A DNA stretch of 64,000 nt, taken from Candidatus Helarchaeota archaeon (lineage in GTDB: Archaea; Asgardarchaeota; Lokiarchaeia; Helarchaeales; RDOG01). Position 1 is the stretch's first letter, and every line of letters starts with the position of its first letter. Shown here piece after piece: positions 14,902 through 23,023 of this stretch. The DNA is taken from NCBI GenBank assembly GCA_019058315.1, contig JAHPZH010000007.1, forward strand, positions 160,001 through 224,000, in the 5' to 3' direction. Made by a program: the position numbers and the translations under genes. The notes below the pieces were generated by a model. It was not told where the DNA came from, did not search any database, and worked only from the letters and a program-made list of their open reading frames with translations.

Positions 14902-15525
14902 TTATTCTTTTATGAATAAAAACGCCAGAATAAAAATCCATGACTGATAGGCATATATTGAAATCCGTTCAAATAATCCCAATAATTCAATATTATTCAT
15001 CATCAATACCGAAGTTAAGCCACCAAAACTAGCCATAATAATCAGTGTAATTATTGAATATAATCTAAATGATTTCCACTGTTTCTCACTGTAAAGACCT
15101 ATCCCAATCATTGGTATAGCTAGTACTATTAATATAATGTTTAATCCTGTGAGAATTATATGCATTGTTCCAGGGAAAGTTCCGGGCATAGGAATAGCAG
15201 TAAAAGGATCCATTGGAAAAATACTCCCCGATAATGCTGAAAATATTCCCAGAATCATAATGAATATGCCACCTAAGAATATTAATTTACTCTGCTCAAA
15301 TTTATAATATGTAATTACTCCAATTCCAAAAATAACTAACATAATTGCAGAGATAACGAAAAGCGAACTTAATAAGTAAGTATTTTTAGAACCAGCTTGA
15401 GTTAATTCACTCACCGCATTTATAATTGGACTATAGCCTTGTGTAATGATACTACCGATAATATCATTTAATAAAAATACGATGGGACCTAAAATACCAC
15501 CATAAAAGAGAAGTTTTTTATCCAT
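14902..15525 (-). CDS. DUF998-family membrane protein
   Basis: GYSPIINAVSEL, IFPMDP, GTMHIILTG, GLFERISIY; about 6 TM helices. Confidence 0.8.
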   Translation of the reverse strand: MDKKLLFYGGILGPIVFLLNDIIGSIITQGYSPIINAVSELTQAGSKNTYLLSSLFVISAIMLVIFGIGVITYYKFEQSKLIFLGGIFIMILGIFSALSGSIFPMDPFTAIPMPGTFPGTMHIILTGLNIILIVLAIPMIGIGLYSEKQWKSFRLYSIITLIIMASFGGLTSVLMMNNIELLGLFERISIYAYQSWIFILAFLFIKE

Positions 15526-15670
15526 GTCTTTATCATCACCGAATTATTATTGCAAATAATCTCGTTGCTTTATAAAATCAATGTTTTTATATCTTATTAA
15601 AAATATAATTAGATAATTTTATTTATATTTATTGATAATTATTGATAGTACTATTTTTGGTGGAGATATT

Positions 15671-17950
15671 TTGAAAAAAAGTAGCGATCAGACTAAAGAA
15701 ACGATATTAACCATGCTTTCAAACCCACTACGCTCACAAGTTCTGAAATTTCTAAGTCAACAAAGCCCATTATCATTTACGGATATAATGGAAAAATTAA
15801 AAATGGATCCCTCCACAGATGCTGGTAAATTTGGATACCATCTTAGAGCTTTGAAAGATACCCAACTAATCAGTGGTGGATCCGAATCGGGTTATAGGTT
15901 AACCAAAATTGGAGAAAAAGTAGTTGAGTTTTTATGGACTTTAGGTGATTTGATAAAATCAGAAGCTCTTGGAGAAATCCAGGTTAGAACATCAAGATAT
16001 TCAGTTGAAAAATTTGACAGAAATAAGATAGCCCTAGCTCTACAAAAAGAAGCAAATATTCCTAGAGATCTTGCTGAAGATATTTCAAAAGAAGCTGAAG
16101 AACGATTGATTAATTCAAAAATTAAATATTTTACCGCACCCTTGATACGTGAATTTGTTAATTTTATCCTTTTAGAAAGAGGTTTAGAAAATTATCGACA
16201 TGCTCTTACAAGATTGGGTCTTCCACCATATGATGTTAAAGAATTAATAAAATCACAAAAGAGCATTTCAAATCCAACATTTATAAAAAGAATAGCAGGT
16301 GATGCTATTCTGGAACAATATTTATTATTAAATGTTCTGGACCATAAAATAGCCGATGCTCATTTAAGTGGTGATATTTTCATTCCAAATGCTAATTATT
16401 TCATCTTAAGACCAAATTCTGTACAACATGATGCACGAATTTTTTTCAGTGAAGGTCTTCCAAGTATGGGCTCTCTAATTGCAATAAGCCCTCCAAAGAG
16501 CTTTAGAACCGCTTTAGGCATTATAGCAAAAATTTTTAACATTTCAAATAGCGCAAGCGACCAATCCTTTGATCATTTTAATGTATTTTTAGCCCCTTTT
16601 ATAAAAAATTTATCACAAGACGATATAAAGAAAAATATTCGAATTTTTTTGGAAGATATCGGCTATCAATTCGATTCCTCAGGAATAAATATTAATTTAG
16701 AGTTTTTAATACCTTCATATCTTCAAGATAGTCCAGCAGTTGGTCCCGATGGTAAGGTTAATGGTATTTATGGGGATTATTTGGAGGAAACACAATTATT
16801 ATTATCGTTACTATTAGATGTGCTAATAGAAGGAGATATCAAAGGGCGTCCCTTTCTTTTACCAAATCAAATTCTTAAAATTCGTCCTGAGGTATTAGCT
16901 CGTGATGAATATAAACCATTATTAATGAAAGTCCATGAGTTAATTCTAAAATTTGGAACACCTTTTTTAGTGAATGCAACGAAAGATTGGCAAACTAAAA
17001 ACGTTAATTTAACAGGAGGTCTAGATCGACTCGCGGCTACATGGAAAGAAGTAGAAGTAGATACTTTACGGACTGGAAATTTAGATTGGGTCATTATTAA
17101 TCTCCCTAGAATTGCTTATGAATCGGAAAATGACGATGATAAATTTTTTGATTTATTAGATACTAGATTAGATTTATCTTATAATGCTTTAAAGCAAAAA
17201 AAAGAAATAATTGATATAAGAATGAATGAAGATAGACTACTACCTTTCTTATCTGCTTCGGTAAAGGGAGAGCCTTATTTTCGAATTGAAAATGCCTCTT
17301 TTTCTATTAGCTATCTAGGTTTACCCCAAGCAGTTAAAATACATACGAATTCAAAAGTATCTGATCATACAGGTTTTAATTTCGCAAAACGAATATTGGT
17401 ATATTTAAATAAATTTTCAAAGGAATCTAGTGAGAAATCAGGTCTTAGGTTTACAATAAAGCAATCAATTTCAAATGGATGGGCCTTCAAACTGGCGGAA
17501 TTGGATAGAGAGTATAATATCTGGAGAAAACGAAAAATAGATGCTAAGCATCAATTCGACTTTTATACTGCAGAAAATTTATTCTCCTCAACCTCTATTC
17601 CGATGAAAAAAAGAATTCAATTAGAAGGAGAATTTCAACAGTATCTTAAAGGCGGTCATATGTCTTTAATCTCAATTGATAGTCCATCATTTGATAGTAA
17701 AAATCTATTGGAGATTACTCGTGATATTTGTAATTCTTCTATAGGAATATTTGGATACGTTCATAACCTTACTTATTGCTCTTCATGTGGTATTAGTTTA
17801 AACGGAATTCATGAAAAATGCCTTAAATGCAGCTCTGCAGGGACTAATATTAACCATTATAGCCGTCAAGTTGGACCATATAAAATTATTTCTCCACAGA
17901 ATAATATTATTATGAATAATATTAAAAATCGGCAAATTTATTCGGCATAA
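15671..17950 (+). CDS. nrdD: HTH + ATP-cone + class III ribonucleotide reductase (NrdD)-like fusion, catalytically degenerate
   Basis: ArsR-like HTH (LSNPLRSQVLKFL...GKFGYHLRAL); ATP-cone (VRTSRYSVEKFDRNKI...TAPLIREFVN); NrdD motifs ADAHLSGDIFI, LRTGNL, INLPRIA; C-terminal CxxC-CxxC. TTG start at 15671 follows SD GGTGGAGA (track start 15632). Confidence 0.85.
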   Translation: MKKSSDQTKETILTMLSNPLRSQVLKFLSQQSPLSFTDIMEKLKMDPSTDAGKFGYHLRALKDTQLISGGSESGYRLTKIGEKVVEFLWTLGDLIKSEALGEIQVRTSRYSVEKFDRNKIALALQKEANIPRDLAEDISKEAEERLINSKIKYFTAPLIREFVNFILLERGLENYRHALTRLGLPPYDVKELIKSQKSISNPTFIKRIAGDAILEQYLLLNVLDHKIADAHLSGDIFIPNANYFILRPNSVQHDARIFFSEGLPSMGSLIAISPPKSFRTALGIIAKIFNISNSASDQSFDHFNVFLAPFIKNLSQDDIKKNIRIFLEDIGYQFDSSGININLEFLIPSYLQDSPAVGPDGKVNGIYGDYLEETQLLLSLLLDVLIEGDIKGRPFLLPNQILKIRPEVLARDEYKPLLMKVHELILKFGTPFLVNATKDWQTKNVNLTGGLDRLAATWKEVEVDTLRTGNLDWVIINLPRIAYESENDDDKFFDLLDTRLDLSYNALKQKKEIIDIRMNEDRLLPFLSASVKGEPYFRIENASFSISYLGLPQAVKIHTNSKVSDHTGFNFAKRILVYLNKFSKESSEKSGLRFTIKQSISNGWAFKLAELDREYNIWRKRKIDAKHQFDFYTAENLFSSTSIPMKKRIQLEGEFQQYLKGGHMSLISIDSPSFDSKNLLEITRDICNSSIGIFGYVHNLTYCSSCGISLNGIHEKCLKCSSAGTNINHYSRQVGPYKIISPQNNIIMNNIKNRQIYSA

Positions 17951-17978
17951 ATGGTTAAAAAAGGTTCAAGGTTAGGAT

Positions 17979-18320
17979 TTAAGTTAAATCTAATTTAATA
18001 AATTCATATTCTCTGATAAATTTACGTTGTGTAATATAGCTATATGCCTCGATGACCATTTTATTTTCATAAATTCTTCCATCATATTCAACTATACCAC
18101 TAATACTAGTCGTTGTAAATTTTATCCGAATACTACTTAAAATGAAATTACCTTTACCTACTGATTTAACAGAATCTTTAACAAACCATTTTTTCATTGA
18201 TTGAGGAGATGTTTTCGAATAAGCGGTAATTACCGTCCCATCTTCAAAAAATCTAATATAATGACTATAATCCTCCAATTTACTCCTATAAATTCCATCG
18301 AATCTTAACAAATTGCCCAA
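17979..18320 (-). CDS. Hypothetical protein
   Basis: 113 aa beta-rich ORF (LRFDGIYRS...HYIRFFEDGTVI) filling an intergenic gap. Confidence 0.6.
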   Translation of the reverse strand: MGNLLRFDGIYRSKLEDYSHYIRFFEDGTVITAYSKTSPQSMKKWFVKDSVKSVGKGNFILSSIRIKFTTTSISGIVEYDGRIYENKMVIEAYSYITQRKFIREYEFIKLDLT

Positions 18321-18490
18321 CTCTAATTTTAGATTGAACTAAATAAGAGTCAAAATCAATAAAATATTGCATTTCCAAATTTTAAAAAATTTATATTTTA
18401 ATTATTACTTAACGTAAAATAGTAAATGAAGAAATTTGGGGAGTTAAAATGGAAAAATGGTTACTTCAGTTATTTAAAAGGATGATTTAA

Positions 18491-19702
18491 TTGACTTATC
18501 GAAATAGAAGACATAGAATGTATTTAGAATTCGGAGGACCAAAAATTGCCAAAAAATTTGAACTTGCTCAAGTACGTGGAATGGATGAAATTGAAAATGG
18601 AAAAGTTTCAATAATTGGTTCAGATTTAAGAGATTTGGAACAAGGAAAATCGTATCCAATTGGAATTCTTATTGAAATTGCTGGAAAAGAAGTTAAAAAA
18701 GAGTTAGAACCGATTTTTGAGTGTAGAATTAAGGATTTCACAGATAGTATTGGTAATATGTTTTATGTATATCATCGATCAGATATTTGGTTTAGATTCT
18801 CAACATTTGTCTATGAAAGAGGATTCAACTCTCTCAAAGTGTGGGGTGAAATGTTGATTGCTTCTTATCAAAGGGAATACGAAAAAATTATTGAAAAAAT
18901 CCAAATAACTTTTTTTACTGAAGAGAATAAAGTTAATGAATGGCATGAAAAAGCCACTAAGATTTATTGTTCAAGAGATGACCAAGTAAAATCTCTTTCA
19001 GACGAGAGAGTTGATACTTTTTTTGGGTGTGCTTTGTGTAATTATATTGTTCCAAATCATTTTTGTATAATCACACCAGACAGTTGTGGTCTATGCGGTT
19101 CAATAAACTGGATTAATGCAAAAGCAAGTTTTGAGCTGGATCCAAAGGGTCCAATTTTCTTCATCAGAAAGGGACAAAGTATAGATACTATTAGTGGTGA
19201 ATGGAGCGGAATTAATGAGATCATTAAGGCAAGAACCCTGGGTCAAATTGAAAGAATTCATCTTTACACGATTCTAAGCCCATTTAACCATACTAGTTGT
19301 CATTGCTTAGAGGCAGTCGCCTTTTATATACCTGAGGTTGATGGGATAGGAATTTTAAATAGAAATTTTAAAGTGCCCGCTATTAATGGATTGCCATTTT
19401 CAACTATGTCAAGTGTAATTAGGAAAGGAGAACAAAGTTATGGTTTTGTTGGAACAGCAATAGGACAAATGCGCTCCCCAAAATTTTTACAAGCTGACGG
19501 TGGATGGGATAGAATTGTTTGGATAACTAATCATGTAAAAGATCGCATTAAAGATGATATATCGATTGAAATAGTTAATAAAATCGCAACTGAATCGGAT
19601 GTAACTAATTTAATGGAATTAAAAGATTTCCTTATATTAAATAATCATCCCATAGTTAAAAAATGGACAAAAGAAATATATAATTCTAATTTTGAGGAGT
19701 AA
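18491..19702 (+). CDS. cdhC: Divergent acetyl-CoA synthase (ACDS beta subunit) paralog
   Basis: EFGGPK, GCALC...HFCIITPD...LCGSINW, HTSCHCLEAVAFYIPEVDG, NGLPFSTM, SPKFLQADGGW; TTG after SD AGGATGA. Confidence 0.85.
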   Translation: MTYRNRRHRMYLEFGGPKIAKKFELAQVRGMDEIENGKVSIIGSDLRDLEQGKSYPIGILIEIAGKEVKKELEPIFECRIKDFTDSIGNMFYVYHRSDIWFRFSTFVYERGFNSLKVWGEMLIASYQREYEKIIEKIQITFFTEENKVNEWHEKATKIYCSRDDQVKSLSDERVDTFFGCALCNYIVPNHFCIITPDSCGLCGSINWINAKASFELDPKGPIFFIRKGQSIDTISGEWSGINEIIKARTLGQIERIHLYTILSPFNHTSCHCLEAVAFYIPEVDGIGILNRNFKVPAINGLPFSTMSSVIRKGEQSYGFVGTAIGQMRSPKFLQADGGWDRIVWITNHVKDRIKDDISIEIVNKIATESDVTNLMELKDFLILNNHPIVKKWTKEIYNSNFEE

Positions 19703-19770
19703 ATGTTAACGGGATGGTTGTTCATAAGAAACTAGATACTTAAATTCGATAAATTGTTGAATTAATTATT

Positions 19771-20388
19771 GTGATTTTAGATGATGAATTGCTTGTTCCA
19801 CGTAAATTATATATAGATGCCGGAGTTCACTTTGGAACTGCCAAAAAAACTTCAAATATGGAACCATATATTTATAAAACTATTAATACGGGCAAAAACC
19901 AAATTAATCTTATTGATATTCGAAAAACAGCTGCCAGAATTCGAGTAGCAGCAAAGTTTATTTCTAGATACCACCCAAATAAAGTTCTAGTAACTTCAAA
20001 GCGAAGATATAGTCATCAAGCAATAAAAAAATTTTCAGAAATAATTGGTACAAAATATATAAAGGGGGAAATTAAACCGGGAACTTTAACAAATTATTCA
20101 TCTAAGCATTATATTGAAACGGATTTATTAATTATAATTGATCCTAAAAAAGATGTTGATGCGATAAATGAATCTTCTATTTCCAAAATACCAATAATAT
20201 GTCTGTCTAATACAGATAATAACTTCATAAATGTCGATTTGGTGATTCCGGCAAATAATAGAGGAAGAAAAGCATTAGCATTAATTTTTTGGATTTTAAC
20301 AAGGCAAGTTCTTTTGGAAAGTGGTGAAATAAAATTTTTTAGCGAATTTAATTTTCCAATTTCCGACTTCCTTTCCCCCTTACATTAA
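19771..20388 (+). CDS. rps2: 30S ribosomal protein uS2, divergent copy
   Basis: AGVHFGT, RIRVAAKFI, PGTLTN, VDLVIPANNRGRKALALIFWIL. Confidence 0.85.
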   Translation: MILDDELLVPRKLYIDAGVHFGTAKKTSNMEPYIYKTINTGKNQINLIDIRKTAARIRVAAKFISRYHPNKVLVTSKRRYSHQAIKKFSEIIGTKYIKGEIKPGTLTNYSSKHYIETDLLIIIDPKKDVDAINESSISKIPIICLSNTDNNFINVDLVIPANNRGRKALALIFWILTRQVLLESGEIKFFSEFNFPISDFLSPLH

Positions 20389-20472
20389 ATTTTATAAATA
20401 TAGTTCATATTAAGTAGAAAATCTAAATATTTGAATTAAAAAATGATTAAAGGAATATAAAAAAGGGATTTT

Positions 20473-20886
20473 ATGGTCAAGTCAAAGAAAAATCTAGATA
20501 TTTATGGTCTCATCGTAATAGATCGTTCAGAAATGACAATAGCCACATTATCTGGTGGTAAAAAAAATATTATAAAGATAATGAGTGCAGCCAAACCATT
20601 TAAACGATTGGAGCGTTGCGAAATACAGAAAAATTATAGACCCCTTATTGAACAAGCTACACAGGAGTTCTTCATTCGTGCAGGAGAACACATTAACAAT
20701 CAATTTTTAAGTCTACAATTAAAAGGGATAATTATAGGGGGAGGTGGACCAACTAAAAAATATTTCGTAAAAGGTGATTATTTAGATAATCGTTTAAAGG
20801 AAAAAATAATTGCTATAATCGATATTGGTTATTCTGGTGAGCAAGGTATTGACGATTTAATTAAAAAAGCCAAATTAATATTATAA
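20473..20886 (+). CDS. Stand-alone aRF1/eRF1 domain 2 (middle domain) lacking GGQ
   Basis: YGLIVIDRSE.TI, LIEQATQEFFIRAGEH, LKGIIIGGGGPTKKYF.KGDYLD.RL..KII.IIDIGYSGEQG. Confidence 0.8.
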   Translation: MVKSKKNLDIYGLIVIDRSEMTIATLSGGKKNIIKIMSAAKPFKRLERCEIQKNYRPLIEQATQEFFIRAGEHINNQFLSLQLKGIIIGGGGPTKKYFVKGDYLDNRLKEKIIAIIDIGYSGEQGIDDLIKKAKLIL

Positions 20887-21224
20887 AATGGCGATAATTA
20901 TAAATAAAGGAAGTAAATGTAAACTAGTGCGGTACTAGTCTAATAAATTTAAAAATTAATTACATTTTTTATGAGATTTTTTCTTCTATTTATTCTAAAA
21001 TATTTCAATTTCGAAAATTCGCATTTCTTGTATAAATGCTTATTAAATTCCTTAAAAAATTGTGGGGTTTTTATTATTTTTTAAAAATTCACTATTGTTT
21101 TGAATGGAAAAAGAGTTAGATTAATTAAAAAAATATCAATTTAATTAGATAAATTTATCAAAAAAAGTTTAAATAATAGAAAAACCCATTATGATTATCA
21201 AATTCAATTTAATTTTTAAAAGGT

Positions 21225-21395
21225 ATGGGATGTCTTGCGATGAATATTAGAACTTTTCCAAGATATTGGTATCATAGAAAGATTTTGAAAGCTCCAGTCG
21301 AGAAATCAGATGATATGGATCCCAAAATACAAGATATTAATCCCAAAATAGGAAAAGCTGACCCTGGCCCTACTAAAAAATCCAAATTAATCTAA
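21225..21395 (+). CDS. Putative small protein (56 aa; or 51 aa from ATG 21240)
   Basis: MGCLAMNIRTFPRYWYHRKILKAPVEKSDDMDPKIQDINPKIGKADPGPTKKSKLI; less AT-rich than its flanks; below the ORF-track cutoff. Confidence 0.45.
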   Translation: MGCLAMNIRTFPRYWYHRKILKAPVEKSDDMDPKIQDINPKIGKADPGPTKKSKLI

Positions 21396-21603: not shown

Positions 21604-22542
21604 TTGACTAAAACTTCTGAGATTTCATTTAATGATAGGGACATAATTTCAATCAAAGATTTAACTCGCGATGAAATTGAATACATTTTAGACATTGCAC
21701 TTAAAATGAAGAAATATCATGATGACCCTACTGATCTTTTAAAGGGAAAAATTCTCGCAACTCTTTTTTATGAGCCCAGTACTCGAACCCGTTTGAGTTT
21801 TACAAGTGCAATGTTAAAATTAGGAGGGGAAGTAATGGGGTTCAGCGATCCAAAGGCTTCATCTGCTGCAAAAGGTGAAAACTTATCTGATTCTATTCTT
21901 TGTATTGAAAGTTATTGTGATATTATAGTTATTCGTCATAAATTAGAAGGGAGTGCCAGATTAGCAGCTGAAGTTTCTAAAAATCCTATTATTAATGCTG
22001 GAAGTGGGACTCAGGAACATCCTACTCAAGCTTTATTAGATTTATTGACTATCAGGAACGAATTTAAATCATTAGATGGTCTAAAAATTGGAATGGTTGG
22101 GGATCTAAAATATGGTAGAACAGTAAAATCCCTCTCCTATGCACTTTCATTATATGATGTTGAATTATCATTCATCTCTCCTTCCATGTTAAGCATGAGA
22201 AAAGAAGTATTAAAGGATCTTGATGATGCTGGAATAAAATATGAAGAATTTTCTGATTTAAGTTCAGTTCTTCCCTCATTAGATGTGATTTACGCTACCC
22301 GTATACAAAAAGAACGTTTCCCCGATCCTGCGGATTATGAAAAAGTTCGAGGATCTTATAAAATAAACAAAGAGTTTTTAAATAATGCAAAAGATTCAAT
22401 GATTTTAATGCATCCTTTACCCAGAGTCGATGAAATAGCATTTGATGTTGATAAACTCCCTTGTTCTAGATATTTTATTCAACCGCTTAATGGTGTTTTA
22501 ATTAGGATGGCATTACTTGGGTTAGTATTAGGAAAAATATAA
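21604..22542 (+). CDS. pyrB: Aspartate carbamoyltransferase catalytic subunit
   Basis: FYEPSTRTRLSF, HPTQALLD, GDLKYGRTV, RIQKERF, HPLPRVDEI. Confidence 0.97.
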   Translation: MTKTSEISFNDRDIISIKDLTRDEIEYILDIALKMKKYHDDPTDLLKGKILATLFYEPSTRTRLSFTSAMLKLGGEVMGFSDPKASSAAKGENLSDSILCIESYCDIIVIRHKLEGSARLAAEVSKNPIINAGSGTQEHPTQALLDLLTIRNEFKSLDGLKIGMVGDLKYGRTVKSLSYALSLYDVELSFISPSMLSMRKEVLKDLDDAGIKYEEFSDLSSVLPSLDVIYATRIQKERFPDPADYEKVRGSYKINKEFLNNAKDSMILMHPLPRVDEIAFDVDKLPCSRYFIQPLNGVLIRMALLGLVLGKI

Positions 22543-22543
22543 A

Positions 22544-23023
22544 GTGAAAAAAATGGTAGAGAAAGAGCTTAGAGTTAGAAAAATCAAGCAAGGCACAGTT
22601 ATAGATCATATAAGCCCTGGAACTGCGTTAAGGGTTTTATCTATTCTTGGAATTATGGGAAAGGAGGGTCATATACTTTCCATTGCTATAAACGTTCCAA
22701 CGGGTAAAAATCAGAGTAACAGAAAAGATATTGTAAAAATTGAAAATAAAGAATTAGAGATTACCGATATTAATAAAATAGCTTTAATAAGTCCTCATGC
22801 TACAATAAATATAATTAGAGACTACAAAGTCGTTAGCAAAGAAAAAGTAAAACTTCCATCAGAACTTAAAGATATTATTAAATGCATTAATCCTAACTGC
22901 ATCACAAATAGTAGAGAACCGATAAAATCGCATTTTACAGTCGAAAATAAAGAACCAATATTATTAAGATGTAATTATTGTAATATTATTATGGATTTAA
23001 AGGATATTTTAAAAAATATATAA
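22544..23023 (+). CDS. pyrI: Aspartate carbamoyltransferase regulatory subunit
   Basis: GTVIDHI, KDIVKIE, CINPNCIT, LRCNYC. Confidence 0.96.
   Translation: MKKMVEKELRVRKIKQGTVIDHISPGTALRVLSILGIMGKEGHILSIAINVPTGKNQSNRKDIVKIENKELEITDINKIALISPHATINIIRDYKVVSKEKVKLPSELKDIIKCINPNCITNSREPIKSHFTVENKEPILLRCNYCNIIMDLKDILKNI

Follow-up and report, generated by a model that had tools for sequence, protein, structure and literature searches.

A winged-helix fusion to a predicted inactive class III ribonucleotide reductase in a Helarchaeota genome: a candidate transcription regulator

The gene and its domains

The DNA analyzed here is a stretch of 64,000 nucleotides from a Candidatus Helarchaeota archaeon (GenBank assembly GCA_019058315.1, contig JAHPZH010000007.1, positions 160,001 to 224,000), referred to below as the window; the host genome amounts to 5.8 Mb in 12 contigs and is 94% complete. 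On the forward strand of the window, at 15671..17950, lies an intact open reading frame (ORF) for a protein of 759 amino acids (P0001), the window gene and window protein of this report. An initial annotation, made from the sequence alone, had read it as an ORF of about 760 amino acids composed of an ArsR-like winged helix-turn-helix (wHTH), an ATP-cone, the barrel of the anaerobic (class III) ribonucleotide reductase (RNR) NrdD and a Zn ribbon, and the Pfam domains found in the 759-residue open frame bear this layout out. The start codon is a TTG at 15671, which is backed by a ribosome-binding site, GGTGGAG, located 5 nt ahead of it (15659..15665, forward strand) and by alignment to the N-termini of orthologues.

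All domains described here are encoded on the forward strand. The wHTH of ArsR type occupies residues 12-87 (15704..15931) and matches the Pfam families DUF7347 (PF24038; E 2e-11, 44.5-49.2 bits against a cut-off of 27.6) and HTH_5 (E 2e-6, 28.3-33.7 bits against a cut-off of 22). It is followed by the ATP-cone, residues 103-190 (15977..16240), of which the Pfam match covers residues 103-175; the PF03477 score was 25.7 bits in the whole-protein hmmscan, where the cut-off is 25.8, and 30.2 bits in the genome search, and a precomputed PF03477 match is present in most orthologues. The barrel, residues 201-690 (16271..17740), was assigned to the NrdD fold by Pfam NRDD, by an AlphaFold2 (AF2) model and by Foldseek, and is predicted to be catalytically disabled. 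The Pfam NRDD match (PF13597) spans residues 201-754 with an E value of 3e-80, and the NCBIfam equivalog model for NrdD, TIGR02487, gives 281.2 bits, under its cut-off of 326.35. The Zn ribbon, CSSC...CLKC (C703, C706, C717 and C720; 17777..17830), is kept, and its cysteines are invariant in the family. The window protein, with its wHTH at the N-terminus, is unmatched by the NrdR model, TIGR00244.

The AF2 model was built on 64 family sequences and had a pLDDT of 88 and a pTM of 0.78. It shows the wHTH with the topology H-H-H-H-E-E-H (a1-a2-a3-aR-b1-b2-a5), and the region of the ATP-cone as a beta-hairpin plus helices. When the model was compared with the Protein Data Bank (PDB) using Foldseek, the top 36 matches were all NrdD, with target-normalised TM scores of 0.57-0.78; the best of these NrdD structures gave E values of 1e-27 to 1e-19 and target-normalised TM scores of 0.65-0.78. 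A phmmer search of the PDB with the isolated ATP-cone returned nothing useful for mapping residues in contact with a ligand. A complex prediction for two copies of residues 1-200 scored 0.32, the mark being 0.42, and speaks neither way.

Loss of the catalytic residues

Catalytic positions were placed by alignment to the two active paralogues of the host genome and to profiles of the Prevotella copri and Thermotoga maritima NrdD proteins. In NrdD the thiyl-radical cysteine lies in a finger loop that reads MGCR or MCCR (PMC9669993). The corresponding loop of the window protein, NLTGGL (residues 446-451; 17006..17023), aligns to the (Q/M)CCRL finger loop of the active paralogues and holds no cysteine. 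At the position of the beta-A active-site cysteine (T. maritima Cys125) stands Ser250, with the codon TCT at 16418..16420, in a PNS triplet (residues 248-250, 16412-16420). The (T/Q)PAE(S/K/G) motif is replaced by QSISNG (residues 598-603; 17462..17479), with Asn601 at the position of the active-site glutamate (P. copri Glu581). The substrate triphosphate motif, defined as H-Y-H-D for the T. maritima enzyme (PMC4493059) and H(Y/H)HD in our alignment, is replaced by FIPN (residues 237-240; 16379..16390). All three active-site cysteines are gone. The only cysteines in the protein are residues 687, 703, 706, 717 and 720, the last four of which form the CxxC...CxxC of the Zn ribbon; none precedes residue 687.

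The coordinates that the initial annotation gave for PNS and NLTGGL, its reading of QSISNG and its count of five cysteines were exact on recheck. It had also regarded the glycyl-radical loop, RQVGPY (residues 732-737; 17864..17881), as altered. The coordinates are right, and Pro736 replaces the conserved tyrosine that follows the radical glycine, which in P. copri is Tyr712 (PMC11226230), but the glycine at the radical position is itself kept, as G735. From the alignment, the window protein is predicted to be unable to perform class III RNR chemistry.

The same losses extend through the family of HTH-bearing proteins to which the window protein belongs, referred to here as dead NrdD. The beta-A cysteine is present in 31/31 active NrdDs and in none of the 121 dead-family members compared, and the second histidine of the triphosphate motif, the gamma-phosphate histidine, in 31/31 actives and 0/64 dead-family members. 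Single elements persist in places: some cysteine is found in the finger loop of 22 of the 121, and the column of the radical glycine holds G in 66/121 and A or S in 40/121. The beta-A cysteine, a finger-loop cysteine and the glycine never occur together (0/121). Of the positions with at least 90% conservation among the 31 actives, 103 are changed in the dead family.

New constraints have also appeared. At 11 positions the dead family has an invariant or nearly invariant residue that differs from the actives (D229, N304, P394, Q441, R453, W458, R467, Y536, R538, R593 and G692), and H253, E652 and H663 of the dead family stand where the actives conserve other residues. The residues of the specificity site (T. 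maritima Gln161 and Gln218) could not be placed reliably, since the alignment of that stretch scored only 7 bits. The initial annotation had envisaged that the RNR body might still sense (deoxy)ribonucleoside triphosphates through its substrate and specificity sites; this idea found no support, since no member retains an intact substrate phosphate motif, the gamma-phosphate histidine being replaced in 64/64.

Selection on the gene

An enzyme stripped of its catalytic residues might be a decaying pseudogene, or an artefact of annotation or assembly. Beyond the missing residues, a further feature that could be read in this way is that the gene adjoins an insert of odd paralogues (17979-21100; see below). 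The ratio of nonsynonymous to synonymous substitution (dN/dS), which would be near 1 in a pseudogene, was computed against L031, an orthologue of 89% identity whose record is partial at the wHTH. The value was 0.083 at a dS of 0.63; by domain it was 0.013 for the wHTH (for the part present in L031), 0.069 for the ATP-cone, 0.091 for the barrel and 0.098 for the tail with the Zn ribbon and glycyl loop. Strong purifying selection thus acts on every domain of the window gene. The frame is open over 759 amino acids, full-length orthologues occur in three archaeal lineages, and the gene region lies on a single source contig, the 3' end of the gene being bridged by a contig from a second study. The chance that the gene is a pseudogene or an artefact is negligible, and the dN/dS of 0.08 was taken to rule out a pseudogene.

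Distribution and conservation of the family

A word-indexed search with the window protein gave 799 matches. Among the best 120 of these, nearly all combine DUF7347, ATP-cone and NRDD, and their source names include Helarchaeota, Lokiarchaeia, Jordarchaeia, Njordarchaeia, Atabeyarchaeia, Bathyarchaeia and Methanomethylicia/Verstraetearchaeota. An exhaustive phmmer search with residues 1-200 alone found at least 339 clusters at 50% identity (E<=1e-10); nearly all of the best 150 matches span HTH and cone and are located at the N-terminus of proteins mostly 580-800 amino acids long. Short matches with wHTH and ATP-cone alone numbered only 38 and were mostly cut at contig ends, so that a separate short form is not shown. 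Public records label most proteins of the family 'anaerobic ribonucleoside-triphosphate reductase'.

In a maximum-likelihood tree, 38 HTH-bearing representatives formed one clade with an SH-aLRT support of 100. Since Bathyarchaeia, Methanomethylicia and Asgard subclades lie within this clade, the tree points to an old gene that has been inherited mainly vertically. Loss of the catalytic residues follows the HTH without exception, a relationship that the initial annotation had proposed to survey: the full catalytic set is found in 0/121 HTH-bearing members, and in the precomputed Pfam lists the HTH is absent from all 120 of the closest active NrdDs.

Within the family the ATP-cone is the most conserved domain, with a mean column identity of 0.77 and 40 of its 88 columns at least 90% conserved. 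The conservation score of the barrel is 0.43-0.60, and one sub-branch lacks the whole Zn/Gly tail. In the recognition helix of the wHTH, GKFGYHLRAL, residues G52, F54, Y56 and H57 are invariant.

These patterns bear on which part of the protein might act as a sensor, if it regulates transcription as argued below. The remodelled barrel, rather than the ATP-cone, could be the decisive element, the former active site with its invariant Arg, His, Trp and Tyr binding some other anionic metabolite, for example a pyrimidine-pathway intermediate, phosphoribosyl pyrophosphate or a nucleotide in a non-canonical pose. Such a sensor would be consistent with the strong purifying selection on barrel and tail (dN/dS 0.09-0.10), with the 11 new (near-)invariant positions and H253, E652 and H663, with the loss of the canonical triphosphate motif and with pyrBI being the commonest neighbour of the gene. 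However, it is still the ATP-cone that is most conserved, the new invariant residues could equally serve packing or contacts between domains, and that they would line one pocket is a supposition. We regard a barrel sensor as rather unlikely.

Other reductase and regulator genes

Two other nrdD genes of the host genome look active, with the motifs CCRL, PAE and R(V/I)TGYY. One is located on contig 7, 58 kb downstream of the window gene and outside the window, and the other on contig 6. A single nrdG, encoding an activase of NrdG2 type, was found on contig 5 (C5:819309-819899). The initial annotation had suggested a search for an intact nrdD and nrdG elsewhere in the genome, and both kinds of gene are thus present. 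It had also drawn attention to the lack of an adjacent nrdG; this is true at the locus, but uninformative, since neither active nrdD of the host genome adjoins nrdG. No class I or class II RNR was found in the host genome, and NrdR (TIGR00244) had no match anywhere in it. The cone of the window protein is the only Pfam ATP-cone match in the genome. As an observation on the active enzymes, several Asgard NrdDs related to the active paralogue P0003 (P0132-P0142 and P0152) are about 1160-1220 amino acids long and carry intein/LAGLIDADG domains (PF14528, PF14890).

In two Asgard genomes of family f22, G053 and G044 (91% and 82% complete), the HTH-bearing dead form is the sole NRDD-family match. 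An RNR of class I/II type is present in both, where a Ribonuc_red_lgC frame of about 1150-1180 amino acids was matched in two pieces and possibly bears an intein. The dead form is evidently independent of an active NrdD partner, as it is the only NRDD-family match in these genomes.

This finding bears on the proposal, already raised in the initial annotation, that the protein is a regulatory subunit of the active NrdD. More broadly, the dead form might act at the protein level as a pseudoenzyme partner that forms a heterodimer with active NrdD or binds NrdG or aspartate transcarbamoylase, the winged helix serving for protein contacts. In the dimeric NrdD enzymes only one of the two monomers is active at any moment (PMC11226230), the host genome has two active-looking paralogues, and the Asgard genome G007 has the dead-NrdD gene immediately next to pyrB and in convergent orientation to an active nrdD. 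Yet the f22 genomes hold the dead form together with an RNR of another class, the ArsR signature and the invariance of the recognition helix typify DNA-binding proteins, and most lineages show no linkage to nrdD. Pairing with active NrdD is therefore disfavoured, and we consider a protein-level partner of any of these kinds improbable.

Gene neighbourhood

Downstream of the window gene, at a distance of 3.6 kb and on the same strand, lie pyrB (21604..22542) and pyrI (22544..23023), both recurrent neighbours of the family. They are preceded by a conserved ORF of 51 amino acids that belongs to no Pfam family (21240..21395, forward strand). An ORF of 49-51 amino acids with the pattern MNIRxFPxYWYxRK...PTKKSK stands ahead of pyrB in the host and in three relatives; it may encode a small protein or a leader peptide for the pyr operon.

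The genes of the three closest relatives run in the order GGACT, GCS2-like, dead NrdD, the 49-51-amino-acid ORF, pyrB, pyrI, epimerase and RING. The window keeps this order apart from two insertions. Upstream, a DUF998 membrane-protein gene (14902-15525, reverse strand) is located between the GCS2-like gene and the window gene; in the relatives the GCS2-like gene stops about 45 nt ahead of the dead-NrdD start. With DUF998 interposed, the window gene has gained an AT-rich promoter region of its own (15526-15670). Downstream, an insert of about 3.2 kb (17979-21100), missing in the three closest relatives, separates the window gene from the pyr operon. It contains an ORF of 113 amino acids on the reverse strand (within 17979-21100), a paralogue of the ACS/CODH beta subunit (18491-19702), a paralogue of ribosomal protein uS2 (19771-20388) and a stand-alone M-domain of aRF1 (20473-20886). 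The junction is not peculiar to this assembly, since the contig from the second study bridges 17860-18390.

The pyrB/pyrI genes adjoin the dead-NrdD gene in the Helarchaeales relatives L020, L031 and L032, in Atabeyarchaeia (L024/L025), at locus L029 and in Bathyarchaeia (L026). By GTDB family, the Asgard genomes with this arrangement are 3/3 in f16, 3/3 in f14 and 1/1 in f10; in family f20 the pyr genes lie 4-8 kb away. At locus L040 (G007 C56, 6574-9645), from an Asgard genome, the dead-NrdD gene begins one base past the pyrB stop codon on the same strand. The active nrdD with which it is convergent was flagged in the genome search for one in-frame TAA in the match.

On two Bathyarchaeia contigs the dead-NrdD gene immediately precedes a glutaredoxin-like nrdH and an active-type nrdD. 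These active-type NrdDs (L026, 8965-11166; L028, 8771-11002), each preceded by the glutaredoxin-like gene, have the finger loop YQCCAYC, not MCCR, and may represent an NrdH-dependent subtype.

Candidate operator sequences

A block of 46 bp (21132..21177, forward strand) with the palindrome GATAAATTTATC and a TATA-like box, TTTAAATA, lies upstream of the operon that comprises the small ORF and pyrBI. It is conserved in four genomes whose intergenic sequences around it have diverged. The block is a real promoter/operator footprint and a candidate target site for the dead-NrdD protein. A weak lead comes from the promoter region of the window gene itself, where the 16-mer AATTAGATAATTTTAT (15607..15622, forward strand) is like the footprint core at the pyr promoter; four copies of the pattern are present in the 5.8 Mb genome.

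The spacers between pyrB and pyrI of Helarchaeales, Atabeyarchaeia (in which CAACCATA is repeated), the f16 genome/L029 and Bathyarchaeia yielded no common motif. The element TATCA-N8-NGATAA showed no preferred spacer genome-wide, with 27 sites at N8 and 16-35 at other spacings. A perfect TTATCA-N8-TGATAA (G000 C7:237996-238015, locus L001) precedes the active nrdD P0002 by 94 nt, and the pyr site matches this sequence at only 10 of 12 positions.

Proposed function

We favour, with confidence slightly above even, the view that the window protein is a transcription regulator of nucleotide-synthesis genes that responds to adenine nucleotides and was derived from a retired class III RNR. The N-terminal ArsR-type winged helix would bind DNA, and the ATP-cone, presumably inherited from the ancestral archaeal NrdD, would bind adenine nucleotides, distinguishing ATP from dATP. 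The dead barrel and Zn ribbon would serve as a scaffold, probably a dimer, relaying a nucleotide-dependent change in conformation or oligomeric state to the DNA-binding heads. The likely targets would be nucleotide-synthesis genes, in the first place the neighbouring pyrBI operon, together with nrd genes. By analogy, the most economical reading is that the coupling of ATP-cone to DNA binder would be broadly like that of NrdR.

That an RNR scaffold has become a sensor controlling transcription had been suggested in the initial annotation. The HTH, the conserved ATP-cone, the purifying selection and the neighbourhood of pyrBI and of nrdH-nrdD all agree with that suggestion, but we infer the DNA binding and the targets, and likewise which ligand is bound, which genes make up the regulon and whether regulation is positive or negative.

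Several observations weigh against such a regulator. Nucleotide binding is not assured, because the N-terminal motif of the cone reads VRTSR in place of V-x-K-R-D-G, which we take to be the canonical motif, and because the Pfam score is at the level of the threshold. The constraint on the barrel equals that of a real sensor or enzyme, and its new invariant Arg, His and Trp are left unexplained by the proposal. No linkage to pyrBI is found in Lokiarchaeia families f2/f3 (0/14) or at the Methanomethylicia-like and P0033 loci, and the linkage seen elsewhere may partly reflect gene order passed down by descent and not a coupling of function. The promoter of the window gene ranks only 34th of 2660 for likeness to the pyr footprint, and no operator common to the lineages was found, despite the invariant recognition helix. 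The other three perfect intergenic copies of TTATCA-N8-TGATAA are located at the promoters of a lipoate ligase gene, of Lrp/AsnC and DsrE genes and of a Vps4-like gene; given these copies at unrelated promoters, one of them that of an Lrp/AsnC gene, the sequence may be an Lrp-type box. Our search turned up no experiment or RNA data on any family member. The searchable literature yielded no paper on DUF7347 or on an HTH-NrdD fusion, and a Tn7 preprint names nrdD only as an attachment site.

A bolder form of the proposal, to which we give somewhat less than even chances, is that the family takes the place of NrdR in archaea, as an ancient master regulator for the synthesis of DNA precursors that would predate the split of Asgard archaea, Bathyarchaeia and Methanomethylicia. 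It would descend from a duplicated anaerobic RNR whose radical chemistry was lost and to which a winged helix was added. Through its ATP-cone it would sense the ratio of ATP to dATP, and it would control the pyrBI and nrd promoters directly.

To our knowledge, little is known of how archaea regulate the synthesis of deoxyribonucleoside triphosphates (dNTPs) and pyrimidines, and NrdR occurs mostly in bacteria. A candidate regulator that is conserved, widespread and easily recognised would open archaeal nucleotide-synthesis regulation to direct tests, also in Asgard archaea, which among prokaryotes are the closest relatives of eukaryotes. The family also offers a clear pseudoenzyme case, in which a radical enzyme would have become a scaffold for signalling and been retained over a very long time. 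It should be noted that, where these genes are annotated as nrdD, a genome can be mistaken for one capable of anaerobic dNTP synthesis, as the f22 genomes exemplify.

Comparison with known systems

The window protein has the same ten-stranded barrel fold as the NrdD proteins of P. copri (8P23), T. maritima (4COI), S. thermophilus (9D3X) and phage T4 (1H78), and shares with NrdD an ATP-cone ahead of the barrel, the C-terminal four-cysteine Zn ribbon and the structural motifs AHLxG, FLAP, NLPR, LLP and GG. The closest NrdD sequences are of the archaeal type that bears an ATP-cone, such as P0003 of the host, to which the window protein is 33% identical. It differs from NrdD in the additional N-terminal wHTH, in belonging to a separate monophyletic clade and in lacking the beta-A cysteine, the finger-loop cysteine, the active-site glutamate and the triphosphate histidine, with a proline in place of the tyrosine.

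NrdR is a bacterial repressor of RNR operons that consists of a Zn ribbon and an ATP-cone (PMC9110341, PMC12176259). Both it and the window protein join a DNA-binding module, here a predicted one, to an ATP-cone, and both have a genomic tie to nucleotide-synthesis genes; with no NrdR match in the host genome, the niche of NrdR is open there. In contrast to NrdR, with which homology is limited to the ATP-cone, the predicted DNA binder of the window protein is a wHTH of ArsR type, not a Zn ribbon, and is accompanied by a dead-enzyme body of about 560 amino acids.

The likeness to ArsR/SmtB repressors lies in the HTH_5 match above cut-off, the winged-helix topology and the HLxxL signature of the recognition helix; the closest solved match in sequence is CadC (3F72; E 9e-4 with the family profile). 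Unlike these repressors, the window protein is fused to a very large C-terminal predicted sensor and falls in the Pfam class DUF7347. Its wHTH head is without cysteine and would therefore have no cysteine-based metal site.

Regulators derived from the folds of pathway enzymes include PyrR, a homologue of uracil phosphoribosyltransferase that regulates pyr genes, as well as BirA and PutA. We found no precedent in the searchable literature for a radical RNR turned regulator. The principle of these systems would be common to the dead-NrdD family, namely the fold of a pathway enzyme reused as a sensor. PyrR, BirA and PutA keep their catalysis, and PyrR binds RNA, whereas in the dead-NrdD family catalysis appears to be lost throughout and the donor of the fold is a radical RNR.

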